The notes beneath the pieces are model-generated. The model was not told the DNA's origin and made no database searches. It worked only from the letters and a program-made list of their open reading frames with translations. From positions 177-64,176 of the forward strand of contig CAYLQP010000005.1 of assembly GCA_964386665.1 (NCBI GenBank): a DNA stretch of 64,000 nt, read 5' to 3'. The position numbers were made by a program, and so were the translations under genes. Below are positions 39,749 to 51,947 of the stretch, in pieces. Source of the stretch: an uncultured Candidatus Saccharibacteria bacterium. Its GTDB lineage: Bacteria; Patescibacteriota; Minisyncoccia; Phycocordibacterales; CAIRYW01. The number at the start of each line of letters is the position of its first letter. Position 1 is the stretch's first letter.

Positions 39749-40624
39749 TCAATCATATTTTCTAGAATATAATAATAATGTCTTCTTGTCAATATTTAAT
39801 GATTCTGCAACATCACCAATTACTATATCGAGCATCCTTTCATCAGGAATCGCTCTAACTTTTTTATCCAATGATTCTTGAAGAACATATTCTTCTCCGT
39901 CCATTTCCCCCATATGCTTAGTCGATAATCCAAAATCAATTATCACTGGTTCACCACACTCATCAATCATTATATTTCCACCATGAAGATCTCTGTGTAC
40001 GTATTTAGCATTACGCATTTTTTGAAGTGCTTTTCGGATTTTTACAAAAAAAGTATATGGATCAAAATTTTCTGGGAAACCTTCCTGATCATCGATATAT
40101 TGATGAATCGATTTTCCTGCTATTTGCTCCATATATATAGCTTCGATATGATCTTTCACTCTTACCCCATCTCTTTCTTCTTCTAGATCCAAACTCATAA
40201 ACGCAGATAAACGAGGTACACGAATTACTCCGTTTAATAAATTTCTAATTTCCTCATGAATTCTTGCCTCTTCTTTCATAGAATTCGCGCCAGGTTGAGT
40301 TATTTTTTGCTCTTTCTGTGCACCAACAAATCTTTGATACATAGGATGAACTCTTTGTACTGAAACTCCTTCATCAAGCTCTATGGAAGGAAATACAGAA
40401 GAGTCCCTTTCTATTTTAAAACAAAAGCCCTCTGATCGATTTCCTGCAGAAACAACTCTTGCTGCCTGACCAACACCAAGAAGCAGCTCTTCTTCTGTTG
40501 ACCAACGACGAAGATTTTTAAGTAACCTTGCTTCAATTTTTCTTTGCTCCTTCTCCTCATGAAGCTCATAATCACTTCCTAATACCTCTTGAGTCGAATC
40601 ACTAAATTCAAATCTAATTACCAT
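39749..40624 (-). CDS. Protein-kinase-like protein (ePK / RIO / Bud32-like fold)
   Basis: Gly-rich loop LLGVGQAARVV, a catalytic loop YVHRDLHGGNIMID and DFG (IIDFGLS). 291 aa. Confidence 0.6.
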   Translation of the reverse strand: MVIRFEFSDSTQEVLGSDYELHEEKEQRKIEARLLKNLRRWSTEEELLLGVGQAARVVSAGNRSEGFCFKIERDSSVFPSIELDEGVSVQRVHPMYQRFVGAQKEQKITQPGANSMKEEARIHEEIRNLLNGVIRVPRLSAFMSLDLEEERDGVRVKDHIEAIYMEQIAGKSIHQYIDDQEGFPENFDPYTFFVKIRKALQKMRNAKYVHRDLHGGNIMIDECGEPVIIDFGLSTKHMGEMDGEEYVLQESLDKKVRAIPDERMLDIVIGDVAESLNIDKKTLLLYSRKYD

Positions 40625-40636
40625 TGTTTTTGTTTA

Positions 40637-41314
40637 TTACAGTTTTAATTCTCCTTTTACTTCCCCCCAAACAATCTCATGAATTTCTTCAATCGAACGA
40701 AGAGTGTCTCCATCCATACAATCAATGCGCTTCCAAAAAGGTTCCCGTTTGAGCATAAAGAGTCCTGCTTCTTTTGAGTTGTGTAAATATTCAAAATCAC
40801 TGTCCGCTACGTCTCTTACTCCCTCTCGAGCCAAGATCAGTTGTTTTGACACATCTTCAGACACATCAAGATACAACACCATATCAGGTTTTAATACGCC
40901 AAGTGTCTGGTATTCCATCACAGAAAGCCAATCAAGAAACTTGTTTCTTTCACTTTCTTCTTTCATCTTCCCTCCTTGATGAATCTGATTACTTGAAACA
41001 TAACGATCGAGTATCACCACCTTTCCTTTATCAAGCCAATGGCGCAACTGCGAAATAGTTTCAAACCGGTCACACGCATAGAGGACCGATGTCACCTTCG
41101 GATCCATCTGCATAAAATTTCCGTGATGGCCATCCAGACATTCTCGAATTAGTTTCCCAAAAAGATTTTTTTCGTATTGAGGAAACCGTAGTGTCTCAAC
41201 AGAAACCCCTTCTTTTTTTAGTCGCAAAAAAAGCGCTTCAGTCTGAGTTGTCTTCCCACTCCCATCGGTCCCTTCAATAACAATAAGTTTTCCTCGTTTT
41301 AATTCGTGATTCAT
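40637..41314 (-). CDS. tmk: Thymidylate kinase
   Basis: P-loop IVIEGTDGSGKTTQ, DRY motif (ILDRYVSS), and a LID region. Confidence 0.88.
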   Translation of the reverse strand: MNHELKRGKLIVIEGTDGSGKTTQTEALFLRLKKEGVSVETLRFPQYEKNLFGKLIRECLDGHHGNFMQMDPKVTSVLYACDRFETISQLRHWLDKGKVVILDRYVSSNQIHQGGKMKEESERNKFLDWLSVMEYQTLGVLKPDMVLYLDVSEDVSKQLILAREGVRDVADSDFEYLHNSKEAGLFMLKREPFWKRIDCMDGDTLRSIEEIHEIVWGEVKGELKL

Positions 41315-41383
41315 TATGTGTATTAGTATAATATAGGAAGCACATACAAACTACTCCTCCACCACCTCTACCATATTCACCCA

Positions 41384-41896
41384 ATGAAAACACTCATTTT
41401 CTTTGTTCTTTTCATTTTAATTTCAAATGTTTCCGCCGCGTTATTTTCACTTCGATACGAAAGCACAACACCAAACCACCTCACCCTTCAGACAAATGAA
41501 GGAGTGACACAGCTTCCGACAGGAAGGATGTCTTCGATCGTCATCTCACTTCTTCAATATGAAGGTGCAATCCTCGTATCAATAAAACACGAGTCACTCG
41601 CAACCAGTTTTGATCTGAAGTATTCTCCAGAGACACTTCGCTTACGTGCAGATATTCTCGGAACACACGAAACTCACCTTTCATTTCAAGACACCGACAC
41701 TGCTTCTCTTTCTCTCTTTGACGGTTTTCAAATGGAACTTGATATAACACACACCCGAGAGTTACATTTTGATTTTGTAGGAGACGTAAGCGGATCATTT
41801 GAAGTGTATTTTGAAGAAGCGGTTCCCGAACCATTTCCCTTCTTCTTTCTTCTTTGTGCAGGGGTGATGCTCTCACAAAGAAATCGCCTCTCCTAA
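41384..41896 (+). CDS. Secreted protein with a PEP-CTERM-like C-terminal sorting signal
   Basis: Signal peptide MKTLIFFVLFILISNVSAA. C-terminus ...AVPEPFPFFFLLCAGVMLSQRNRLS (VPEP + TM helix + basic tail). Confidence 0.5.
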   Translation: MKTLIFFVLFILISNVSAALFSLRYESTTPNHLTLQTNEGVTQLPTGRMSSIVISLLQYEGAILVSIKHESLATSFDLKYSPETLRLRADILGTHETHLSFQDTDTASLSLFDGFQMELDITHTRELHFDFVGDVSGSFEVYFEEAVPEPFPFFFLLCAGVMLSQRNRLS

Positions 41897-41930
41897 AGAA
41901 GAGAGGTTTTTTTAAATCAATTAGAAAGCA

Positions 41931-41960
41931 AAAAACGGCCACCCTAAGGTGGCCGTTTTT
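41931..41960. terminator. Hairpin terminator (aaaaacggccaccctaaggtggccgttttt). A second hairpin lies upstream at 41887-41913.
   Basis: Two consecutive stem-loops downstream of 41384..41896. Confidence 0.6.
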
Positions 41961-42088
41961 TTGTCCTCACTTTCGGAAGAATCTTTCTCGAGGAGAGAGA
42001 TTTGCACAAAAAATATAGATATTTTTCATATAAAAAAGATTCTCCCAAAAGTAAGCTGGATCTGCTCCAGTTGCATATACAATACACT

Positions 42089-42133
42089 GCGCCGAAATTT
42101 TGAACAACTTCGTTGTACTCAAAATTTCGGCGC
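42089..42133. repeat. 45-nt palindrome (gcgccgaaattttga ... tcaaaatttcggcgc) with a 15-bp stem
   Basis: Read directly. It shares the CGCCGAAATT core with the hairpin at 46462-46482 and is followed by the ccctatca motif that starts the r1 repeats. Confidence 0.7.
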
Positions 42134-42360
42134 CCTATCACCCCACCACACTCGTGATGAAGTGAACAAGTTGGAGAAAGATCTTACACTTTCTCCAGAA
42201 ATCAAAGAACTTCTATCTCGTTACACCAAGCCCTTCTTGATGTATATTTTCTACGTGCGAGCACACGATCATTTTTCGGTATGATTACCTTCTATGTGAA
42301 AGGAGTTAGTTTCTTCCTGCTCTCACTTCTGTTCACACGGCAAGAGAGTGCCGCGGTTCC

Positions 42361-42714
42361 TTACTCGGGATTGCCAGTAACAACAACGAGTCCATTGTGG
42401 TCATCGGACATAACTTTGACATCATATCCACTTCCCATAATTGCATCTTCAAACGCTTGCAACTCCTCCATGGTGGTGTATTCCACCCCGAGGAAAACTG
42501 CAGGTCGTCCGTTTTGCACGGCTCGTACTGCTCTCGCTATCAAATCCGCTCCACCCCAAGCAATCGTTTCGTCACGACCGGCTTCGGAGAAATCAATCTC
42601 CCAAGACCAACCCTTCCGAACAAACTCTCCCAGGAGAGCTATTGGATTTTGACCACTTGGAACTTCACGAGTTTGACCTTCGTATGGTCCAGTCAAAGCA
42701 GTTACTTTGATCAT
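42361..42714 (-). CDS. Hypothetical protein (117 aa), mid-GC
   Basis: Clean ORF whose start codon lies 2 nt from repeat r1a. No motif. Confidence 0.4.
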   Translation of the reverse strand: MIKVTALTGPYEGQTREVPSGQNPIALLGEFVRKGWSWEIDFSEAGRDETIAWGGADLIARAVRAVQNGRPAVFLGVEYTTMEELQAFEDAIMGSGYDVKVMSDDHNGLVVVTGNPE

Positions 42715-42715
42715 A

Positions 42716-42880
42716 CCCTATCAGTCCACAAGGCTTTGCAGACTGAATTGGGAGGAGCTTCGATGTTACCAACACCGAAGCTCCTTGTAACCATTTTGCT
42801 TCCTCACGGAAGCAAAAATTTTTTCTCATTTTCAAAGGCAGAGAAATTCTCCTTCCTATTATTCATCCCGCATAGGTGCG
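42716..42880. repeat. Composite repeat module, copy 1: r1a (ccctatcagtccacaaggctttgcagactgaattgggaggag) + hairpin 1 + the ~93-bp r2a
   Basis: r1 recurs at 43732 and 46429. r2 (aaccattttgcttcctcacggaagcaaaa...cgcataggtgcg) recurs at 44094-44185 with one mismatch. Confidence 0.85.
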
Positions 42881-42888
42881 TTTGTTAC

Positions 42889-43590
42889 TTAATTATCAAC
42901 GATCTCCGTGCATTGTGACCAACACGGATGAGCTTTCTTACTCACCGGAAGGTTGTGTGCTTCATCAAGAGTCTTTTGCAGAACCTTAAGCAGGCTCTGC
43001 AAGACTTCTGCCGACATAAACATAGGCTCTGCCCATAGGTGAATTTCTGCCACCTGTTTACTGACCAACCCATTATGATCAGCCACCTCTTCGGCGATCA
43101 CAGCCCAAGGCCCAGAGGTCTCGAGGGTCCACGCCTGCCCCCACCAATAAGTGGTAGGGCGGCCATTGCCACCTTCTTCCAGTATGACTGGGAAATTTTG
43201 GTACGTGGCTGGCACGGTACTCCGTGCCGTTGGATAGTAACAATGAAGATTTTGCTGATAACCCTTCAGCAGAACCTTTTCATCCGCCTGGTGATGGCGG
43301 ATGATTTTATACGACACGCCCTTGTCGTATAAAAACTTCATGACAGGACATCCCGGGGGAGTCCGAAGAAAACAGTACGCAGACCGCGTACTGTTGTGAA
43401 AAGTTATGTACCCGTCGCTGGGTACATTAAATTTCCACAAATCTTTCTGCGCTGCACCCGAGGTGCTGCGCAGACAAAATTTTCCCTCCTCCATCCACCC
43501 CCACCAGGAGTGGTAAAAATTTTTCTGTTCCGTGGCGGAGGTGCCACGGAGTTCTTGTTTGATCTGGGCGATTATGAATGACCGTTCCAT
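42889..43590 (-). CDS. Hypothetical protein (233 aa), Trp/His-rich, mid-GC
   Basis: Sits between repeat module copies. No recognised motif. Confidence 0.4.
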   Translation of the reverse strand: MERSFIIAQIKQELRGTSATEQKNFYHSWWGWMEEGKFCLRSTSGAAQKDLWKFNVPSDGYITFHNSTRSAYCFLRTPPGCPVMKFLYDKGVSYKIIRHHQADEKVLLKGYQQNLHCYYPTARSTVPATYQNFPVILEEGGNGRPTTYWWGQAWTLETSGPWAVIAEEVADHNGLVSKQVAEIHLWAEPMFMSAEVLQSLLKVLQKTLDEAHNLPVSKKAHPCWSQCTEIVDN

Positions 43591-43731
43591 TTTTATTTTT
43601 CTTCCTTTAAATTCTCAGCGCGAAAGAAAACGCTATATCTGATTTTGTGCAGAGTTCTATTTATATTAACCTGCGTATTTTTATATCAAATCAGAAAGAT
43701 ATGTTTTGTTGGTTCAAAACCTAGGTTCACT

Positions 43732-43797
43732 CCTATCAATCCACAAGGCTTTGCAGACTGAATTGGGAGGAGCACAAGTAACCAAACTCGTGCTCCT
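43732..43797. repeat. Repeat r1b + hairpin 2 (aggagcacaag-taaccaaa-ctcgtgctcct)
   Basis: Same 5' flank gaattgggagga and the same loop taaccaaac as hairpins 1 and 3, but with a different, compensated stem sequence. Confidence 0.8.
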
Positions 43798-43825
43798 AAA
43801 TAAATGTTTCTCCTAATAAAAGGAG

Positions 43826-43852
43826 ATAAGGGAGACGGGACTCGAACCCGCA
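43826..43852 (-). tRNA. tRNA-like 3' fragment (T-arm GCGGGTTCGAGTCCCGT + acceptor 3' strand CTCCCTT); no 5' half found
   Basis: The reverse complement reads gcgggttcgagtcccgtctccctta, a canonical T-stem/T-loop. No D-arm or anticodon arm could be fitted upstream, so it looks like a remnant or attachment-site duplicate. Confidence 0.45.
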
Positions 43853-44049
43853 TAAGATTGTTACCACACCACGTTTTCCATTAAATCAAGCCATATGCAT
43901 CGAAAATCGATGCTTTTTGTACTTTTTTTAAAACGCGTAGCAGCTCCAATCCTCGATTGCTCGTACAGCCTTCGCAGGCTTGCGCTTTGTCCGATTTAAG
44001 CTACTCCCCCCTAAAGAACCCTATGAACCAACGACGCTTGTCGCGGGTT

Positions 44050-44185
44050 CAATTGGGAGGAAGTGCGACGTAACCAAACATCGCACTTCCTTTAACCATT
44101 TTGCTTCCTCACGGAAGCAAAAACTTTTTCTCATTTTCAAAGGCAGAGAAATTCTCCTTCCTATTATTCATCCCGCATAGGTGCG
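44050..44185. repeat. Hairpin 3 (ggaagtgcgacg-taaccaaaca-tcgcacttcc) + r2b (93-bp near-identical copy of r2a)
   Basis: 44094-44185 matches 42789-42880 with a single t/c difference. Confidence 0.85.
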
Positions 44186-44193
44186 GTGTTTTT

Positions 44194-45732
44194 TTAATTT
44201 GCAGACGACCGGGAGTTCCAGAATCTGCCAAGGGCGACGCGCGCAGTAGACTGCGCGCGCGACTCCTTATTGAGGAGCCACTGCACCGGGACAAAGCGCC
44301 GGTGTGCCCAGCCGTTCGCCGCCATAAAGGCGGCGGTGCCACGCTCGCAGTTGCCTGCAGCGTAGCTATCCGCGAGACAAGCGAGGACGGTAACGTTCGC
44401 CGGCAACTCCAGACCATTGGCTTTCGCCTCACGGTCTTGTGTTGCCCAGGCCTCGGCCGCAAGTCGGATGGCATACCTCTGCCAATACTTGGCAGATCCG
44501 CCGACTTTTTTTCCAGCATCCTCCTTAGGTCGGATTATTTCTAATCCGTTGCCCCAGGCACGGCTGACCTGGGACCATTCCGAGGTCTGGAGGATAGCCT
44601 CAGTTGGTTGCTCTGAAGGCAACCAACTGAGGTGATACGTCCGCCCTGTGGCAATATTCTTCACCACAGTCTGCCTGCGCAGACCAGTGCACCGCCGACG
44701 GTAAAAGTCGGCAACCAACCCCTCCACCACCTCGTGGCCGCGAAGTGTAGCTGAAGCCACAACAAACATTTTGACTCCGTCATCCTGCCGCATGGGCGGC
44801 AGAATGATTTGATCATAATGTTGCCCTTCCGCCATTCTCTGGCGGAAGAATTCCCGAGCCTCGGGCACCATCGCCCGCCACTGATCGTGGTGGAATCCGC
44901 GGAACCGAACGAATTCGGTGACGCGGAATTTTTCGATATGCACTCCAGTGAAGTGTGCGAGGGTCCGTAGGGCCAACCGCTGACCCAGCTTATTCCCGCG
45001 TTTTGGCCCGCGGGGAGCCGCAAGTTCACCCATCACAACCGTCCAAGGGACGGACTCAATCCCGAAGGGACCGAGAATTTCTTTCGCCCGGCAGAGGCCG
45101 GACGAAATCGCCCGGTATGCCCTGCCAGGTGTTTCCCACCTCTCCATCGAGGAGCCGGTGAGAAATGCGGTCATGTGACCGCAGTGATGATTGCGGGGCG
45201 AGTTCATTCCTCGCAACGGCGCTTTTGCGAGCGCCGTTGCGGCGCGGCGAAACCATGCGGGATGTTCCCCCACCAGTTCCCCCATGGCTTTCATCCAGCC
45301 TGCGGTGCGAGCGCACCGCTCCATGTCAGCGGCTGGCACTCTGTGCCAACCATGCCAGCACATGGAGCCTACAAACTGGCTGGGGCAGGTGCCCCAGTTC
45401 GATGGTAGGATAGGGGTTTCATTACCCCCCTCATATGTTGGTGGCCCTGATAGGGCTGCCAGTGCATCCTTGAGTGGCTTTTCGCCACTCGTGAGAATCC
45501 GCGCAATTACTGCACGGGTTGATGTGTCCCCCCAGCGGTTTGCACCACCGGGGAATTTATTTTTTTTACCAAACGCTCCTCTCGGGCGCACGAGGCGCCG
45601 ACAATCGGCCTCACGGCCGAGGAAGAAACGCAGGTCACGGATTGAAAACAATGAAAACTTCATTGTTTGATGACAGGTAACGTTACTGCAGACGGAAACT
45701 GTTTTTCGCAATATGCGAGTCGGATGTTTCAA
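44194..45732 (-). CDS. Hypothetical 512-aa protein in a ~60% GC insert (possible replication or transposition function; unassigned)
   Basis: An uninterrupted 1.5-kb ORF in GC-rich DNA, which is unlikely by chance. Rich in R, W, H and C. Contains AHFTGVHI and KYWQRY (YxxxY) about 160 aa apart, which weakly resembles HUH-nuclease motif order. No firm family assignment. Confidence 0.45.
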   Translation of the reverse strand: MKHPTRILRKTVSVCSNVTCHQTMKFSLFSIRDLRFFLGREADCRRLVRPRGAFGKKNKFPGGANRWGDTSTRAVIARILTSGEKPLKDALAALSGPPTYEGGNETPILPSNWGTCPSQFVGSMCWHGWHRVPAADMERCARTAGWMKAMGELVGEHPAWFRRAATALAKAPLRGMNSPRNHHCGHMTAFLTGSSMERWETPGRAYRAISSGLCRAKEILGPFGIESVPWTVVMGELAAPRGPKRGNKLGQRLALRTLAHFTGVHIEKFRVTEFVRFRGFHHDQWRAMVPEAREFFRQRMAEGQHYDQIILPPMRQDDGVKMFVVASATLRGHEVVEGLVADFYRRRCTGLRRQTVVKNIATGRTYHLSWLPSEQPTEAILQTSEWSQVSRAWGNGLEIIRPKEDAGKKVGGSAKYWQRYAIRLAAEAWATQDREAKANGLELPANVTVLACLADSYAAGNCERGTAAFMAANGWAHRRFVPVQWLLNKESRAQSTARVALGRFWNSRSSAN

Positions 45733-45966
45733 CGACTACTTTCTAGTTTTACCCTCCCTCATACGAGTTTAGGTTCCAGAAAAGCATTTTGACCGCAAAA
45801 TAAATTGTAGGCACAAAATGCTTTTCTGGAAAATCCTATCGCAAACAAAAACTTTGACACTTTTGTTTGCGAACAAGATGCAGAAAATTAACCAAAATTT
45901 TCTGCAAAAACCTTTCCAACACTTCACCCCACCACGGAGTATGGTAGTTGGCCTACCATCGTTTCT

Positions 45967-46395
45967 TCAGAGGTCGAATTGCTCAACCTCTTCGACACTG
46001 GCCGGGATGGCCAGCACGTTGGTCTCCCCGCGGGAGACCCTGTTGATCTCCCGCATCACTGCGGGAGACCCGAGTGACCGAAGCGCGAAGCGCGCTCCGG
46101 TCTTCCGCATCGGGATCATCCCAATGCGACCGAGTAGTTCGGCGCGACTCAGGTCGCGCCGAATGATTTCGAGAGGGAGAGCGATCTCGGTACCCTCCCC
46201 CTCAATGCGCAGTACAATCTTGACCAACTCCTGCGCGAGCTGGCGGGTGCGCCTTGCGGCAACCCAGAGAGCCACGGCGGCAATACCGCCGATGGCCCCG
46301 CAAATGTCGGCCACGCCACTGACGAAATCCATGAAACTCATGGCAGCCCCGGATCTACCCCGGTAACTCCGCAATTTTGAGCGCGTGATCCTCAA
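45967..46395 (-). CDS. Hypothetical 142-aa protein in the high-GC insert (one TM helix)
   Basis: Co-oriented with the 512-aa ORF. Hydrophobic segment FVSGVADICGAIGGIAAVALWVAA. Competing ORFs exist in other frames because of GC richness. Confidence 0.3.
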   Translation of the reverse strand: MRITRSKLRSYRGRSGAAMSFMDFVSGVADICGAIGGIAAVALWVAARRTRQLAQELVKIVLRIEGEGTEIALPLEIIRRDLSRAELLGRIGMIPMRKTGARFALRSLGSPAVMREINRVSRGETNVLAIPASVEEVEQFDL

Positions 46396-46428
46396 TTTTG
46401 AGCTGAAGTGAAATGCTCTAGGTTTTTT

Positions 46429-46482
46429 CCTATCAACTTACAAGCTTTGCAAGCTGAATAAGACGCCGAAATTGCTTTCGGC
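46429..46482. repeat. Repeat r1c (cctatcaacttacaagctttgcaagctgaat) + hairpin 4 (gccgaaattgctttcggc)
   Basis: Third r1 copy, located exactly at the distal edge of the high-GC insert. Confidence 0.75.
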
Positions 46483-47239
46483 TACTTATAACCACAAGCA
46501 AGTAAAAAGCGAAAGTATTCTTTCTTTTTTTACGAGTCGCCGTGGTTGTATACCAAAAATTTAAATAGAATTTTTGGTATATAAAGAAAAACGTTTAGCA
46601 TCTCTTTGGTGCATCACCTTTTTCTTCATCTGTCCTCATCTTACGATATTTCACAAGCTCATAACCCGTGTCGTAAAACTCAAACTATTTAGTTTTCAAA
46701 ATCCATAGTACGACCCGATGGTTATACTATCCCTCTTGATTTTGGTTACTCTCTCCTCAGAGAATTTCCCTCTATCTGGGATATTCCTCAAGACAAAGTT
46801 GGTTAGACTTTCTCTCGAGACGATATCCCCTCGAACTATGTTCGAGATGTTCTCGTGTCACGAAGTGTTTGGGTTGCCCGAAACGTCTTCTTGTATATAT
46901 AGACTGGTTTCTAAGCACTCTATATTCATCGAAGCTTCGCCTTTAGAAACAAGGTGTACAAAAGGGTGCTATTCACGCCGGCTTACTTAGGCCTTTGTAG
47001 ATCTTCACTCTCTCCTCAGAGGTGTGAAGAACACTCTTTTATCTACCTTCTCAATGTTCTTTACTGTGAATAGTATAGCATCTTCTTTACATATTGTCAA
47101 TAATGTGTGGCAATTTATTATTTAATCATCGAATATATTGTGACAAAAGGCTAAAAACTCTTATTTTTAGTTATCCACTTGTCATAAACTTGTGACAGTA
47201 TTATACTATAAGTACATTATGAAATAACCCATATAACGT

Positions 47240-47995
47240 ATGTACCAAGAATATCTTGCAAAATCAGGGCTTTCGAAAGATCAGGCAACTATATATGACC
47301 TTCTTCTTCAATATGGAAATATTGGGGCTAGTAAGCTATCTAAACTCTCTGGGCTTAAACGAGGGCTCACCTACAAAGTGATTGATCAACTTATTGAACT
47401 TGGGCTTTGTGAGAAAAACGACAAACTATCGAAGATAACTCTTTTCTTCCCTGCCCATCCTTCAAAAATCAAAGAGTTATTTGAAAAGAAAAAAGAAGAA
47501 GCCAAACTTGCTGAAGAAGCACTTACGGGAATGATGGGACAAATGATCTCAACCTTTAACCTCGCTTCTGGTAAACCTAATGTGCAGTTTTTTGAGGGGC
47601 TGGAGGGGGTATGGAAAGTACTGGAAGATTCTTTGACTGCAACCACAACCATTGATGCGTACAGTGATATTGAATCAATCGAAAAATATATTCCTGAAGT
47701 AAATAAAAAATATGTAGAGAAGCGTGAAAAATTTAAAATCAAAAAACGAGGACTTATCCTCGATACTCCAAAAGCTCGCGCACTTCTTGAGGGATACCAT
47801 ACAGATGTAACAGAAAATAAATTTATAAAATGCTCACTTACTCCAAACCAAACACAGACAATCATTCAAATTTATGAAAACAAAGTTTCATTTATTACTC
47901 TTGGCGAAAACACAATGTTTGGAACAATTATTGAAGATATTCATATTTATGAATTACATAAATATCTCTACCAATCTTTGTGGGAGAAGTTTTAA
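47240..47995 (+). CDS. TrmB-like transcriptional regulator (N-terminal winged HTH)
   Basis: LSKDQATIYDLLLQYGNIGASKLSKLSGLKRGLTYKVIDQLIELGL matches a TrmB-type HTH. 251 aa. Confidence 0.55.
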   Translation: MYQEYLAKSGLSKDQATIYDLLLQYGNIGASKLSKLSGLKRGLTYKVIDQLIELGLCEKNDKLSKITLFFPAHPSKIKELFEKKKEEAKLAEEALTGMMGQMISTFNLASGKPNVQFFEGLEGVWKVLEDSLTATTTIDAYSDIESIEKYIPEVNKKYVEKREKFKIKKRGLILDTPKARALLEGYHTDVTENKFIKCSLTPNQTQTIIQIYENKVSFITLGENTMFGTIIEDIHIYELHKYLYQSLWEKF

Positions 47996-48003
47996 AAGAC
48001 CCA

Positions 48004-50766
48004 TTAACTTCTGCTGCTCAATGTAGGACCTCTATCAATCTTAGTTTTGTATTCCTCAAAAAGTTTTTTAGGCACTTTTTCTATAACAATAATTGCAAAA
48101 TTCTCTTCTTCGGTCAACTTTCTTTTAAAGAAACGTGTAACAACCCATTTTTCGTCCCCTTCTTCAAGTATTGAAAAATCCGTCTCGGCCACATTTTCCA
48201 AACGAGTCATCATTACCCTACACCTACCGTCTTCAAATTCATTCCACTGGAAAGGTATTACATTATCCATAACCATTTCTTCTGTATATTGTTTTGAAAT
48301 GAAAATACTGTTCATTGATTTATTTGAAACAATGTTCAAAGAAGAATCCTCTTCAAACTGGAACTGTCCTTCAGCTACAAATCCGCGTTCAATATACTTC
48401 GGAGTAACTGGTGCCCCTTTAGAACAGGTGGCAGTTACAATGTGTTTGTTCATTACTTCGTCTAGAGTCTCTTCCATCATCTTTTCACCGATTCTTCCCC
48501 CTTGAAAATCAGGATCGATATTGAATTTACCAAAATATACTTGATCTCCATTATATTCAAATACAACCACTCCAACTAATTCTCCTTTAAAGAAAAGAGT
48601 TTGAAATTCTGCATTTGGTTTTTTTAAACTTTCATCAAAACCTTCAAGTAACTGCGCCAACATTTTTGGTCTATCTTTATAGTTTTTTCTGTAAATTTCT
48701 TTAATAGCTCGTATTTGATCTGGGGTAATTGTATAATTCTCACCTGTAAAAAGATCGGTGTCTGGTAAATCATTAAAATCAATTCTTTCGCGTTCTGTTG
48801 ATTGCACTATCGATTGCATTAAGATAGCCTCAGCTGATACAGCTTCTATTTTTTTACAAATCGTTTCTGGGTTACCACCTTTTATTAAATCAACAACTCT
48901 ATTTAATATTTTAGTTCGGACTCTTTGCGGAATCTTTCCAGATGCAACATTTTTTACCCTTCTTCTTCTTTCAATTTGTGCAAAGGGATCATTTTTAAGG
49001 TCATCACTTAGTTCGTCTTCACCTACCTCCCCGATGACTTCATCAAAGTGATTTAACTCTGCCAAGATTTTAGCAACACTAATGCAAATCTTTTCAGCAT
49101 CCTCATCATTAAAGCGCTCAAATAAATCTAAAACATACCCTTTGAACTCTTCACCCTCTAAGTTTAAGAGGATAAAAAATTTGAGTCCATTCTCACCAAG
49201 ACGTTTAGTCATTTGAACTATTCGATTTTTTTCAACATGATCAGCTTTTTGCCAAACCACAAACAAGGCACCTTGTTCTTTGAATGTAAGATTATTTAAG
49301 TCTGCTTCTGTATTATGAAAAAGCTCCCCATCCGCAAAACCAAAATAGCCTTTTTGAAACTCTGCAACATATTCCTCTCGCTCTTTTTTTTGCTCTTCAG
49401 TTTCATCAGGTTTTGGAATAAAAAGAGTTTCATACACAAATTCCATAACTCGGGCTTTTACAACATCATCTAAAGAATCCACTTCAGCTAATTTAAAATA
49501 TCCAGTCAATTGGTCATTTCCATCAAATACTCCAACCTCGCCATTAGGCGTAAGTCTTCTTACAAAATAGTTTGGATCATTTTGCTCAGCTAGATCATAC
49601 ATTTTCTCTAGATACCTCACTCCACTTTCTGAGACACCGATACGCCCAAACTCAAGTCTATATAACACAGCTGTCAAAGCATTCTTGTTTTTAGCCTCGC
49701 CTTTTATTTTTTCTAATAAACCTTTTGCCGCCCTATGAGGATCTTGTGCAACCAGAGCTTCAGTTGTTGCATTGGCAAAGATAGGGTTACGGTTTTTATC
49801 CCAAAATTCAACAAGTAAATCCGTTGTTTCTCCTGTATCATCCTTTACTTTTTTGATCTCATCTAACACAGCAAGTAGCATTCGGTGGTGTGGGTATTCC
49901 TCTACGGCACCTCCATGAGCAGCGGTATTATCCATTTGATATTGAAACCATTCTTGAGCTTGGTTATAGGCATTGCTTGGCTGAAATGTTCCGTACAACA
50001 TTGAATGTGCAACATTGTGTCGGGAAGTTTGATTAAATCTTTTCACACTAGCAGCTGAGAATACACTATTGTTTGTTTCTTCAAATACAAGTGAGTACTG
50101 AAGAATAGAGAGAGCTGTCTGAAGAAATCTTATTTTATCTGCTGTTGGTAATTTATCATATGCTTCTCCTTGAAACATGTTGCCTGTCTCTAATCTTTCA
50201 TCTAAGCCCAAAGATTGAGAGTTTGCATTATCAAAGGTTTCCAGAAATTCTTTGGAAGCTTCTCCAAAATCACTTATTCTTCTAAAAATATCAAAACTAT
50301 AATTTGATAGTAAGTGCGCCGGCGCGAGTTTACGACGGTCATGTACTGCGGCCCATTTATCTGATTGAACAAATCCCACACCTTCTGAAGAAGGTTCTTT
50401 AATATCTTCACCTAACCCAGCACAGATAGCCCACAAATTATATTCTCGACTACTTCTAGGTAATCTTTGAGATTCAATATATGACTTAAAAGCATCTAAT
50501 TCATTTGGAAAAACTTCAAAATACCTATTTGCAATATCGGGAGTAACCCTGAGATCTACCAAGGACATGGACAACCAAAACATCCGCGTGCCAACATCTA
50601 CTTCTTTGAGTGTGTTTAAATTTGATTCTTCAAAAAAATCAACCGGACTTCTAGAAAATTTTTCGACCCACAACTCAATTTCTTTATCAGAACCAACAGA
50701 AAGCTCGTATGCTTCCAAATACGCATCACTATTTTCTAATCCTTCTGGTGGAAATTCTTTTGGCAT
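48004..50766 (-). CDS. Large (920-aa) protein with an internal GNAT acetyltransferase domain
   Basis: Residues ~690-800 are GNAT-like (LVGVVVFEYNGDQVYFGKFNIDPDFQGGRIGEKMMEETL; the Q/RxxGxG/A acetyl-CoA motif is QGGRIG). The N-terminal ~680 aa are unrecognised. Its start abuts the glyA stop. Confidence 0.6.
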   Translation of the reverse strand: MPKEFPPEGLENSDAYLEAYELSVGSDKEIELWVEKFSRSPVDFFEESNLNTLKEVDVGTRMFWLSMSLVDLRVTPDIANRYFEVFPNELDAFKSYIESQRLPRSSREYNLWAICAGLGEDIKEPSSEGVGFVQSDKWAAVHDRRKLAPAHLLSNYSFDIFRRISDFGEASKEFLETFDNANSQSLGLDERLETGNMFQGEAYDKLPTADKIRFLQTALSILQYSLVFEETNNSVFSAASVKRFNQTSRHNVAHSMLYGTFQPSNAYNQAQEWFQYQMDNTAAHGGAVEEYPHHRMLLAVLDEIKKVKDDTGETTDLLVEFWDKNRNPIFANATTEALVAQDPHRAAKGLLEKIKGEAKNKNALTAVLYRLEFGRIGVSESGVRYLEKMYDLAEQNDPNYFVRRLTPNGEVGVFDGNDQLTGYFKLAEVDSLDDVVKARVMEFVYETLFIPKPDETEEQKKEREEYVAEFQKGYFGFADGELFHNTEADLNNLTFKEQGALFVVWQKADHVEKNRIVQMTKRLGENGLKFFILLNLEGEEFKGYVLDLFERFNDEDAEKICISVAKILAELNHFDEVIGEVGEDELSDDLKNDPFAQIERRRRVKNVASGKIPQRVRTKILNRVVDLIKGGNPETICKKIEAVSAEAILMQSIVQSTERERIDFNDLPDTDLFTGENYTITPDQIRAIKEIYRKNYKDRPKMLAQLLEGFDESLKKPNAEFQTLFFKGELVGVVVFEYNGDQVYFGKFNIDPDFQGGRIGEKMMEETLDEVMNKHIVTATCSKGAPVTPKYIERGFVAEGQFQFEEDSSLNIVSNKSMNSIFISKQYTEEMVMDNVIPFQWNEFEDGRCRVMMTRLENVAETDFSILEEGDEKWVVTRFFKRKLTEEENFAIIVIEKVPKKLFEEYKTKIDRGPTLSSRS

Positions 50767-50768
50767 AT

Positions 50769-51947
50769 TTATTTCTTCCCTCGCAAGACTTTATCGATCT
50801 TTTGGGCGATTTTGACGAAGTCCACCTCCTTCTTTCCTCGTGTGGTTTCTGCTGGACTTCCAAGTCGGATTCCAGATGGGTCAAATGGACTTCGTGTTTC
50901 TCCCGGAATTGTGTTTTTGTTACAAATCATCCCTGCTTTCTCGAGAAGTGCTTCGGCGTCTTTTCCAGGAAGACCCTTCCCACCCATCCATGTATCAACA
51001 AGTACAATGTGTGAATCAGTCCCTTTTGAAACAATTCTCCATCCAAGTCTCGATAGTTCTTTGGCGAGTGCACGAGCATTTTTGATGACTTGTTTTGCAT
51101 ATGTCTTAAATTTTGGATCCATAGCTTCTTTGAGTGCAACCGCAACCGCAGCAATTTGACTCATATGTGGACCTCCTTGAATAGATGGAAACACAGCTTT
51201 GTCTATTTTTTTGTTTAGTTCTCTTTCATCTTTTTTTGCAAAGATAAGCGCTGAACGAGGACCTCGAAGTGTCTTATGAGTGGTGGTTGTAACGATATCA
51301 GCGTAAGGAAAAGGGCTCGGGTAAGCCTTCCCTGCTATAAGTCCTGCGATATGAGACATATCAACCATAAGGAGTGCTCCGCAGGCATCTGCAATTTCTC
51401 TAAATTTTTTCCAATCAACCACTCGTGGATATGCAGTGAATCCTGCTACTATGAGAGCTGGTTTTTCTTCTAGTGCGATTTTTTTTACTGCATCATAATC
51501 AATGAGCTCGGTGTTTGGATCAACAAAAAATGGTACTCGTTGCCACACTTTTCCTGTGATTGATACTTTCTGAGCATGCGAGAGATGTCCTCCAGATGAA
51601 AGCTCCATTCCCATAATTTTTGCACCTAAAGGTACTGCCCCGAGATATGCAGCAAGATTTGCATTTGCACCACTTAACGCCTGAACATTAACATGCCAAT
51701 TATCTTTCTTGAGTCCAAAGAGTTTAAGTGTTCGCTCCTGACAAAGAAGCTCTAATTTATCTGTGTTATCTTGCCCTCCATAATATCTTGCGTGAGGATA
51801 CCCTTCAGCATACTTATTATCAAAGATAGACCCAAGAGCTTCGAGTACATCTTTAGAACAATAATTTTCTGATGGAATAATGTTGAGAACTCTTTTTTGT
51901 CTTTTTGTTTCGTCTTGTATAAGCTTTTTGATTTGTATGTCTTTCAT
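50769..51947 (-). CDS. glyA: Serine hydroxymethyltransferase
   Basis: PLP-lysine region (TTTTHKTLRGPRSALI) and full-length SHMT similarity, 392 aa. Confidence 0.93.
   Translation of the reverse strand: MKDIQIKKLIQDETKRQKRVLNIIPSENYCSKDVLEALGSIFDNKYAEGYPHARYYGGQDNTDKLELLCQERTLKLFGLKKDNWHVNVQALSGANANLAAYLGAVPLGAKIMGMELSSGGHLSHAQKVSITGKVWQRVPFFVDPNTELIDYDAVKKIALEEKPALIVAGFTAYPRVVDWKKFREIADACGALLMVDMSHIAGLIAGKAYPSPFPYADIVTTTTHKTLRGPRSALIFAKKDERELNKKIDKAVFPSIQGGPHMSQIAAVAVALKEAMDPKFKTYAKQVIKNARALAKELSRLGWRIVSKGTDSHIVLVDTWMGGKGLPGKDAEALLEKAGMICNKNTIPGETRSPFDPSGIRLGSPAETTRGKKEVDFVKIAQKIDKVLRGKK

Follow-up and report, generated by a model that had tools for sequence, protein, structure and literature searches.

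Two separable GC-rich cassette genes, one of the Csx23 family, in a variable island of a Patescibacteria chromosome

Within a 64-kb stretch of contig CAYLQP010000005.1 (hereafter the window, the whole stretch of DNA that was analysed), an interval of about 2.2 kb at 44190-46400 had been flagged in a sequence-only reading as a single GC-rich insert, carrying open reading frames (ORFs) of 512 and 142 aa between repeat modules. Here, we report that this interval consists of two protein-coding genes, one encoding a 124-aa protein that belongs, by sequence and residue criteria, to the Csx23 family, and the other encoding a 489-aa protein of an uncharacterised superfamily. We favour, with moderate confidence, the explanation that they are two separable cassette genes in a variable, defence-type island of a chromosome of the Paceibacteria, a group of the candidate phyla radiation (CPR). 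The window is ordinary chromosome, with genes for RecA, FtsK, ribosomal proteins, aminoacyl-tRNA synthetases and NusG, and its host belongs to the Parcubacteria/Paceibacteria group of the Patescibacteria, its SHMT being at most 77% identical to those of Taylorbacteria- and Zambryskibacteria-type metagenome-assembled genomes (MAGs). Throughout, coordinates are positions within the window, and L-numbers denote homologous loci in other contigs.

The two GC-rich genes

The GC anomaly of the flagged interval is real. As a whole, the interval has a GC content of 0.567, compared with 0.383 in the remaining window, where the background varies between 0.36 and 0.42 in 2-kb windows. It is not one continuous block of 2.2 kb, as had been proposed, because a 303-nt spacer of host-like GC (45664-45966, 0.396) divides two coding sequences. 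Accordingly, GC reaches 0.57-0.63 at 44200-45550 and 0.54-0.66 at 45850-46450, dips to 0.40 between the peaks (45700-45999) and is down to 0.35 by 46450. The two GC-rich parts coincide with the coding sequences, of which 44194-45663 has a GC content of 0.590 and a GC content at third codon positions (GC3) of 0.627, while the corresponding values for 45967-46341 are 0.624 and 0.744. Codon usage, for which a comparison with the rest of the contig had been suggested, makes both genes strong outliers, their GC3 lying 6.1 and 8.2 standard deviations, respectively, above that of the 50 other genes of the window (0.303 ± 0.054). The bias extends to the protein level: both families are rich overall in glycine, alanine, arginine and proline (GARP), with a GARP content of 0.36-0.37 in the two flagged proteins against 0.21 ± 0.04 in host proteins. 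A moderate rise in GC reaches further down to ~42250, taking in two additional cassette genes. An rRNA or structured RNA as the source of the high GC was considered and rejected, since Rfam gave nothing at its gathering threshold, with only chance hairpin matches at E <= 10, and the codon-position test indicates coding.

The smaller of the two ORFs stands as a real gene with homologues, whereas its length does not. The 142-aa version began at an upstream TTG; the start is ATG 46341 (M19 of that ORF), giving 124 aa, and the homologues (n = 16, 37-91% identity, 124-146 aa, mostly 124) align from this methionine. One of them is annotated to a Candidatus Paceibacterota MAG. The protein matched the PADLOC Csx23 model PDLC01550 (E = 9.1e-19, profile positions 6-101 of 102), and a profile of the family matched PDB entry 8qjk_A 'csx23', a crystal structure for the soluble domain of Vibrio cholerae Csx23 (VcCsx23), with E = 1.6e-13 (residues 37-123 to 5-87). 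Csx23 is an ancillary effector of type III CRISPR systems, a tetramer anchored by its N-terminal transmembrane domain (Gruschow et al. 2024, PMC11014256), and was present in 4 of 1113 type III CRISPR loci (PMC11229360). Its cytoplasmic domain binds cyclic tetra-adenylate (cA4), with R95 and R110 being essential for binding; F111 of VcCsx23 stacks on the adenine, while R95 forms a pair with E97 from the adjacent subunit (PMC11014256). In the HMMER alignment, VcCsx23 R95, E97, R110 and F111 correspond to R66, E68, R84 and F85 of the window protein, and all four residues are invariant throughout the 17-sequence family alignment. The AlphaFold2 (AF2) model (predicted local distance difference test score, pLDDT, of 88) carries a helix at residues 3-36, followed by b-b-a-a-b and a short C-terminal helix, which is the order of elements published for Csx23. 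Over 19 residues, hydrophobicity on the Kyte-Doolittle scale peaks at 1.86 (residues 9-27), with RRTR coming next, and the N-terminal helix is predicted to be a transmembrane anchor, shorter than that of VcCsx23.

A type III CRISPR context was looked for and not found: there was no match to Cas10 or any other Cas protein among the 54 ORFs of the window, CRISPR-like repeats are absent from the 64 kb, and the annotations of L091, L092 and L094, three further loci with a Csx23-like gene, show no cas gene within their 6-kb flanks.

The larger ORF is also a real gene with homologues, and again the proposed length needs correction, as the true start ATG 45663 gives 489 aa. All seven members of the close family begin with M/V-K, 7-9 nt past an invariant element (see below), and the TTG extension to 512 aa, as well as the long annotated N-terminus of P0004, is upstream read-through. 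Seven clear homologues have 38-74% identity, lengths of 438-532 aa and no Pfam domain. In codon-aware alignments, third-position differences exceeded those at the first and second positions in 21 of 21 pairs (0.20/0.18/0.48 for the window versus L007, with 168 synonymous and 129 non-synonymous codon changes), indicating purifying selection on the large gene at the protein level. When 1.84 billion cluster representatives were searched with a profile, 171 proteins were identified at E <= 1e-3, seven of them close and the rest mostly 370-600 aa long, best matched in the C-terminal domain with N-terminal motifs also shared. The C-terminal ~85 residues follow the pattern LV..DSYxAGNCxxGT..F....GW..R.FVPA.WLL. 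In a 39-sequence superfamily alignment, motif conservation runs over the full length. Invariant or near-invariant positions comprise P, N, R, G, S, H and C, and acidic residues are not among them.

We obtained no match for the 489-aa protein in Pfam, NCBIfam, PHROGs or PADLOC, and none for its distant relatives in Pfam or NCBIfam. Sequence-profile searches of the PDB with the family alignments gave nothing, and Foldseek with the AF2 model (pLDDT 73) found no significant match in PDB or BFVD. An assignment to a housekeeping family, an outcome that had been named as evidence against foreign DNA, was not obtained. Cultured phage and plasmid collections contained no match to the large gene family, searches of GTDB representative genomes, IMG/VR and JGI metagenomes with the close-family alignment gave no new loci, and the 39-sequence profile run against a 5.8-billion database returned, among the matches listed, known members only. 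A distant superfamily member is present at L096 7272-8399 (IMG/VR UViG_3300010293_000059), on a viral-annotated contig with a GC content of 0.57, where it is flanked by matches to phrog_1221, phrog_7247 and phrog_1273 and by a phage sigma factor. The 489-aa protein may be either an independent cassette or the partner of the Csx23-like protein. Some family loci (L001, L002, GCA_013565595.1 and others) carry contig numbers from hundreds of thousands to more than one million, for example JACCDK010906293; given these very large metagenome-type assemblies, the host taxonomy of L001/L002-type loci is taken from neighbouring genes alone.

The island and the same locus in relatives

The distance between SHMT and tmk is 9454 nt in the window, while in L011, L017, L070 and L072 tmk starts 3-336 nt past SHMT (gap positions 11200-11536 in L011 and 11188-11191 in L017). 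This separation delimits a variable island about four times the size of the flagged region (Table 1). It contains the genes for a 920-aa GNAT protein and a TrmB regulator, the Csx23-like gene, the 489-aa gene, a gene-less insert, and o233, o117 and o170; the GNAT, TrmB and o170 genes have host-like GC. The earlier suggestion of compositionally foreign DNA between repeat modules is borne out by the GC3 and amino-acid outliers and by the absence of the island from related genomes. No match was found for o233 in Pfam or PHROG, and PADLOC gave nothing for o233, o117, o170 or the GNAT protein and weak HTH-only matches for TrmB.

The left side of the island is its conserved part. The GNAT and TrmB pair has homologues in L001 (54% and 69% identity) and L092 (34% and 36%), with varying downstream content. 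Homologues of TrmB flank the family or the array in L001, L006, L008, L009, L013 and L092, and L001, L006 and L009 each have a divergent TrmB-family gene upstream of the large gene, as does L008, where two genes intervene. The region upstream of the TrmB gene is 74-76% identical to L001 and L007. Its palindromes, with a third TGTGACA 40 nt upstream, show the same arrangement in the window, L001, L007 and L013, and are a probable autoregulatory operator; they resemble TrmB-family sites of the TATCAC-N5-GTGATA type.

Downstream of this anchor, gene content and order vary. In the closest relative, L007, the large gene is followed by homologues of o117 and then o233, with no Csx23-like gene. The order of o117 and o233 in the window (42361-43590) is opposite to that in L007 (2885-4274), which provides direct evidence that cassettes have been shuffled in the array. 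In L091 (67-2213), from the MAG that also contains L013, a Csx23-like gene with 65% identity to that of the window is followed by a very distant superfamily member, tmk and ArgRS. The similarity of this 501-aa protein to the 489-aa protein is confined to the C-terminal DSYRAGNCAAGT domain (FDSYRAGNCAAGT; close-family profile E = 6.5e-7). The large partner has either been replaced or is evolving very fast. The TrmB-anchored locus L092 (4212-6420) encodes, in a row, a Csx3-domain protein (E = 2e-13, residues 117-201 of 202), a pVip-like, viperin-like radical-SAM protein (E = 2e-11) and a Csx23 homologue, whose GC3 alternates between 0.66, 0.34 and 0.84, with more genes of unknown function beyond. 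Csx3/Crn3 is a cA4 ring nuclease, and the Csx3-domain neighbour strengthens the case that cyclic oligoadenylate (cOA) metabolism matters in these islands. In L094, the Csx23-like gene is followed by genes of unknown function and a MoxR/VWA pair. Altogether, the large gene and the Csx23-like gene sit side by side in 2 of the 4 contexts known for Csx23-like genes and in 2 of the 8 for the superfamily; the small gene is missing from the other six large-gene contexts, and the large gene from the other two small-gene contexts. A tyrosine recombinase (Phage_integrase) is encoded at L006 13589-14545, ~4 kb downstream of the family member, and has no counterpart in the window or the other examined loci.

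The compositional bias recurs in these relatives. Across seven genomes, the large gene has a GC content of 0.52-0.62, compared with 0.37-0.48 in the rest of each locus, and a GC3 of 0.52-0.74, while the GC3 of Csx23-like genes is 0.62-0.84; host genes, including the neighbours of the Csx23-like genes, have values of 0.2-0.35. High GC and a GC-type amino-acid composition thus accompany both families in every host examined.

No tRNA or tmRNA gene was detected by ARAGORN in the whole 64 kb. An integrative element targeted to such a gene was rejected, as the window contains a 22-nt T-arm-like fragment only, with no intact tRNA or tmRNA and no integrase. Outside the island, a 291-aa protein with a Ser/Thr-kinase domain is encoded between tmk and ArgRS (39749-40624, minus strand), and is probably the ORF that matched many PADLOC PD-T4-6 kinase models (best E = 1.4e-11). 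Among the 54 ORFs, PADLOC also matched mad8 (two ORFs, best E = 4.9e-39), SspH (9.4e-56), QatD (4.2e-23, probably a TatD DNase) and HerA (probably FtsK) outside the island, and several of these matches are likely to be housekeeping cross-hits.

Conserved non-coding elements

Two kinds of conserved non-coding sequence accompany the genes. The first is a 24-nt near-palindrome, CGTCTGCAGTAACG(T)TACCTGCCA, which occurs once in each of the seven close family loci, 7-9 nt before the ATG or GTG. Besides the window, these are L001 (7967-7992), L002 (7966-7992), L006 (8021-8046), L007 (1144-1170), L008 (7830-7854) and L009 (2785-2810). The element is invariant while the proteins drop to 38% identity, and it is absent elsewhere across the 1.5 Mb of examined sequence. 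Upstream of it, the leader can be aligned to L007 within a stretch of 73% identity; its 18-bp hairpin, inverted repeat I8, has equivalents in L007 (I1) and L001, and hairpin P1 shows G-C to A-U changes in two sequences. As this covariation is modest, no riboswitch is claimed. The 24-nt element was also considered as an operator for TrmB, a candidate that was weakened because different conserved palindromes precede the TrmB gene itself, and it is probably not simply a TrmB operator. Possibly, it acts in the control of translation initiation, as an RNA hairpin or a protein-binding site.

The second kind comprises the repeat modules, which do lie at the boundaries as reported earlier: the start of r2b coincides with the stop codon of the large gene, and a diverged r1 copy, r1c, is found at ~46427-46460, 86-120 nt upstream of the Csx23-like start. 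The latter is 78-82% identical to r1a and r1b over 32-33 nt and carries TTGATAGGAA at 46436-46427. The 114-nt r2b (44086-44199) is 92% identical to 42781-42894, and this second r2 copy, 1.3 kb away, likewise begins at a gene stop codon. The r1 31-mer has two occurrences against zero expected. Each cassette gene has such a module of ~180 nt behind it, starting at the stop codon, and the intact copy folds into four consecutive hairpins at -71.2 kcal/mol (z = -6.1 versus shuffles; z = -8.4 for its L007 counterpart). The r2b module is orthologous to L007 2657-2870, its unpaired stretches being near-identical and its stems compensated, for example TTTTGCTTCC-GTGA-GGAAGCAAAA versus CTTTGTCGCG-GTGA-CGCGACGAAA, and the third hairpin occurs with four different stems, all perfectly paired. 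The 21-nt core TCCTCCCAATTCAGTCTGCAA shows no difference between the window and L007, against a divergence of ~48% at third positions in the neighbouring genes. The modules terminate in (T/G)TGATAGG near the following gene, and a related motif, GTGG(G/A)GTGATAGG, is located between cassette genes in the window, L007 (three times), L006 and L091. A bidirectional terminator-like hairpin (41929-41962) lies beyond the lower end of the array. Only the window and L007 yielded the full module, and its core had no match in viral contigs.

One module is split by a gene-less insert of 234 nt, which has no counterpart in related loci and contains a 22-nt fragment similar to the T-arm and acceptor 3′ strand of a tRNA (GCGGGTTCGAGTCCCGTCTCCC; 5′ GGGGGGAGTAGC). 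A tRNA or tmRNA at 43800-44030 was rejected, with nothing convincing from ARAGORN (default and relaxed) or from Rfam at E <= 10. This insert with its matching borders is the strongest pointer to the core being a recombination joint; however, neither canonical attC features nor an integrase is present. The G-U pairs in the gene-sense strand and the GNRA loop suggest an RNA-level role. The modules are candidates for an untranslated region (UTR) structure, a processing site or a recombination site.

Table 1. Features of the island and its array in the 64-kb window
Feature	Position	Strand	Description
Lineage-specific variable island	41315..50768		between tmk (40637-41314) and SHMT (50769-51947)
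Csx23-family gene	45967..46341	minus	124 aa; N-terminal hydrophobic helix and C-terminal domain of the cyclic-tetra-adenylate-binding type (predicted)
Uncharacterised-superfamily gene	44194..45663	minus	489 aa; helical N-part, beta-rich middle, C-terminal ~85-aa domain
Invariant palindromic element	45671..45697	minus	CGTCTGCAGTAACG(T)TACCTG(C/T)CA; ends 7 nt before the ATG, in the usual Shine-Dalgarno place
Structured leader	45698..45831	minus	18-bp perfect hairpin (45774-45831), then short hairpins P1 and P2
Degenerate motif copy	45920..45937	minus	GTGGTGGGGTGAAG, a copy of GTGG(G/A)GTGATAGG between the two flagged genes; read from the sequence
r1c	46427..46473	minus	diverged r1 copy ending in TTGATAGG; upper array edge
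r2b, hairpin B and TCCTCCCAATT	44040..44199	minus	first part of a module, starting at the stop codon of the 489-aa gene; repeat D1
Gene-less insert	43806..44039	minus	234 nt, splits the module; hairpin and TCCTCCCAATT at both ends
Hairpin C and r1b	43727..43805	minus	core TCCTCCCAATTCAGTCTGCAA, then TTGATAGG; repeat D6, 98%
Cassette gene o233	42889..43590	minus	233 aa, GC3 0.55; 45% identical to the L007 homologue at another array position
Intact module, r2a - hairpins - r1a	42712..42892	minus	~180 nt; from the o233 stop codon to the o117 start codon
Cassette gene o117	42361..42714	minus	117 aa; 60% identical to the L007 homologue directly after the large gene
Terminal motif and hairpin	42090..42146	minus	GTGGGGTGATAGG; lower array end, no cassette gene beyond
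TrmB-upstream palindromes	47139..47197		TTGTCA(C/T)A-N4-5-TGTGACA (TTGTCACA-N4-5-TGTGACA) and TGTGACA; putative operator
TrmB-family regulator	47240..47995	plus	winged helix-turn-helix; Pfam TrmB 7.9e-8; divergent from the array, conserved locus anchor
920-aa GNAT-domain protein	48004..50766	minus	Pfam Acetyltransf_10/1; conserved left flank with TrmB

Explanations weighed and comparison with known systems

Under the explanation that we favour, the island, anchored by the large GNAT-like protein and the divergently transcribed TrmB-family regulator, would act as a recombination hot spot that trades cassettes with a GC-rich mobile gene pool. The repeated modules may supply the homology for shuffling and probably also serve as 3′/5′ UTR structures at the RNA level. 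The Csx23-like protein would form a membrane tetramer in the manner of Vibrio Csx23, its cytoplasmic domain binding cOA, most likely cA4, and the bound signal would perturb the membrane, so that the phage is stopped or dormancy is induced. Paceibacteria are generally poor in CRISPR-Cas. The signal would come from a synthase encoded outside the 64-kb window, and a synthase elsewhere in the genome is the most likely source; that it is supplied or relayed by the adjacent 489-aa protein is possible on weak support, and that it comes from outside the cell, such as from the host of the presumed episymbiont, is speculative.

We considered whether the two genes instead form one system, in which the 489-aa protein is the infection sensor and/or a new type of nucleotide-signal generator and the Csx23-like protein the membrane effector of Cas10-independent cOA signalling. 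The genes are co-oriented and adjacent, the pairing recurs in L091 before tmk, the GC anomaly is common to both, and the window contains no other signal source. However, the counts of contexts given above show each gene occurring without the other (6 of 8 for the large gene, 2 of 4 for the Csx23-like gene), and the two are set apart by 303 nt of spacer, which contains an 18-bp hairpin and a distinct conserved leader. Moreover, the 39-sequence alignment lacks conserved acidic residues of the nucleotidyltransferase kind, and no similarity of the 489-aa protein to cyclases was found in Pfam, PADLOC or the PDB, and we regard such a system as unlikely. Rated slightly lower is a broader version, a Cas10-independent cOA alarm pathway in a TrmB-anchored island, with the 489-aa superfamily as a new class of infection sensor, signal generator or signal modifier and the modules as exchange sites. 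A comparably low probability is given to an integron-like cassette array, that is, a cluster of attC sites lacking integron integrases (CALIN), in which the r1/r2 modules are attC-like and the recombinase is encoded elsewhere. Such an array would account for co-oriented cassettes of differing GC with similar structured repeats between them, for the gene-less unit with a hairpin and a TCCTCCCAATT core on both sides, for the cassette order and content that differ from L007, and for stems that vary among copies yet stay paired, like the variable parts of attC. Against it, the window encodes no integron integrase or tyrosine recombinase, and inspection revealed no RYYYAAC/GTTRRRY core sites, the flanks of the variable hairpin being TGGTTA(C/A)A and TCCCAATT. 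An RNA element better accounts for the G-U wobbles on the gene-sense strand and for the conservation of unpaired sequence, and the restriction of the full module to the window and L007, with none in viral contigs, also argues against an integron.

A single recent horizontal transfer from a GC-rich donor (for example a fragment of a plasmid or phage, or the physical host of the episymbiont), not yet ameliorated, is improbable in our view. It would explain why both genes are strong outliers in GC3 and amino-acid composition, and it agrees with the GC-type composition of the superfamily and with the one member on a GC-rich phage-like contig. A single recent event fails to explain the GC, because the closest relatives are syntenic beside TrmB in low-GC contigs of the Paceibacteria type and show the same GC excess despite near-saturated synonymous divergence. 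In addition, the spacer, leader and flanking modules are host-like in GC and conserved with L007, and the two genes differ in distribution. The high GC may instead come from cassettes drawn repeatedly from a GC-rich mobile pool, or be maintained by biased gene conversion or selection at the hot spot. Most improbable of all is a transposable or rolling-circle element (of the IS91/HUH Rep or IS66 type) or an assembly chimera, as had been suggested from the abrupt GC change beside repeats and the two co-oriented ORFs of 142 and 512 aa. The HUH-like AHFTGVHI and the YxxxY motif KYWQRY do not survive comparison with homologues, in which His is replaced by Q, L, Y or I and Tyr by F: AHFTGVH aligns with SQLTGVQ, SQITGVP, EYFTGVK and LTITGVY, and KYWQRY with KFWQRF, RFWQRF and VFWRRY. 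With these residues variable and no Rep match in Pfam, the proposal of a rolling-circle initiator falls, and the likeness to IS66-type tnpA/B/C fares no better, since the genes are separable, the small ORF is a Csx23 homologue, and Pfam, PHROG and NCBIfam gave no transposase or Rep match. Furthermore, no terminal inverted repeats bracket the two-gene unit. A chimera is strongly argued against by an independent Logan assembly (SRR12762291), which is 99.989% identical to window positions 53663-44156, with one mismatch and no gap; this contig runs through the upper GC boundary and continues 38 nt past the lower one before ending inside the r2 repeat. As it possibly comes from the same sample, it confirms the assembly path, not independent biology, whereas synteny in other genomes confirms the independent biology of the arrangement.

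Several observations weigh against the favoured explanation of separable cassettes in a defence-type island. A defence island has been defined by at least five defence genes of at least three families lying within 10 genes of one another (PMC12259885), and the island in the window holds one recognised defence gene, Csx23. There is no Cas10, CD-NTase or mCpol gene and no CRISPR array within the 64 kb, and since no cOA synthase is encoded there, the proposed signalling lacks a demonstrated input. The identity of the ligand is deduced from residue conservation, and Foldseek with the AF2 model of the Csx23-like protein retrieved weak PB1-domain matches only, without 8QJK. The window contains no transposase, Rep, integrase or other recombinase, and the link to phages consists of a single distant match. 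Finally, the synteny of the large gene and TrmB across genomes fits vertical inheritance, in which case the persistent high GC requires another cause, such as biased gene conversion or selection.

Even if the other readings are set aside, one correction stands, namely that transposon, Rep element and chimera are all wrong descriptions of the region. Csx23 is a rare and recently characterised cyclic-nucleotide-gated membrane effector, and its relatives here, represented by 16 cluster representatives, occur in low-GC contigs of the CPR type with intact ligand-binding residues and no Cas10 in view, which suggests that cOA signalling, or eavesdropping on cOA, operates in ultrasmall symbionts. In the literature searched, Csx23 was reported in type III loci only, and no paper linked Patescibacteria with cOA signalling. 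The 489-aa gene provides an entry to an uncharacterised superfamily of ~170 cluster representatives with an unusually conserved translation-start element, and the locus is a clean example of genes that stay GC-rich over long divergence within AT-rich genomes, which bears on amelioration, gene conversion and mobile gene pools in CPR genomes.

Compared with V. cholerae Csx23 of a type III-B system (8QJK; PMC11014256), the window protein is similarly small, with a predicted N-terminal transmembrane helical part and a soluble domain of ~90 aa; profile homology spans the whole soluble domain, R95/E97/R110/F111 are kept, and the predicted order of secondary structure is the same. It differs in having no type III CRISPR-Cas, Cas10 or CRISPR array nearby, in its strongly elevated GC relative to its host, in residing in a Patescibacteria genome and not a Vibrio prophage, and in having one predicted N-terminal helix, where the published 8-helix tetramer model implies two per protomer. 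CPR bacteria have few but dense defence systems and very few recognised defence islands (PMC12259885). Like a defence island (Makarova et al. 2011, as cited in PMC12259885), the locus is variable and lies between core genes, and it combines recognisable parts (Csx23 here; the Csx3-domain, pVip-like and Csx23 genes in L092) with unknown genes of atypical composition. Unlike a defence island, it falls below the defining gene count in the window (L092 has three recognisable genes), has no flanking integrase or other hallmark of a mobile genetic element, separates its cassettes by structured repeats and is anchored by a TrmB-family regulator.

Chromosomal integron arrays and CALINs likewise have small co-oriented cassettes, structured repeats, variable order and content, and heterogeneous GC. 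They differ from the array described here, in which IntI and, by inspection, a canonical attC core are lacking, and the repeats fill the whole interval from 3′ UTR to start codon and are RNA-like, with G-U pairs and a GNRA loop. Stand-alone parts of cOA pathways are also found outside CRISPR loci, such as Csx3/Crn3 ring nucleases and Panoptes-type mCpol systems. Unlike the Panoptes-type systems, the window has no detected mCpol or minimal cyclase. As with other stand-alone parts, a cOA-binding module occurs here without an adjacent Cas10, and in L092 a Csx3-domain protein accompanies the Csx23 homologue.

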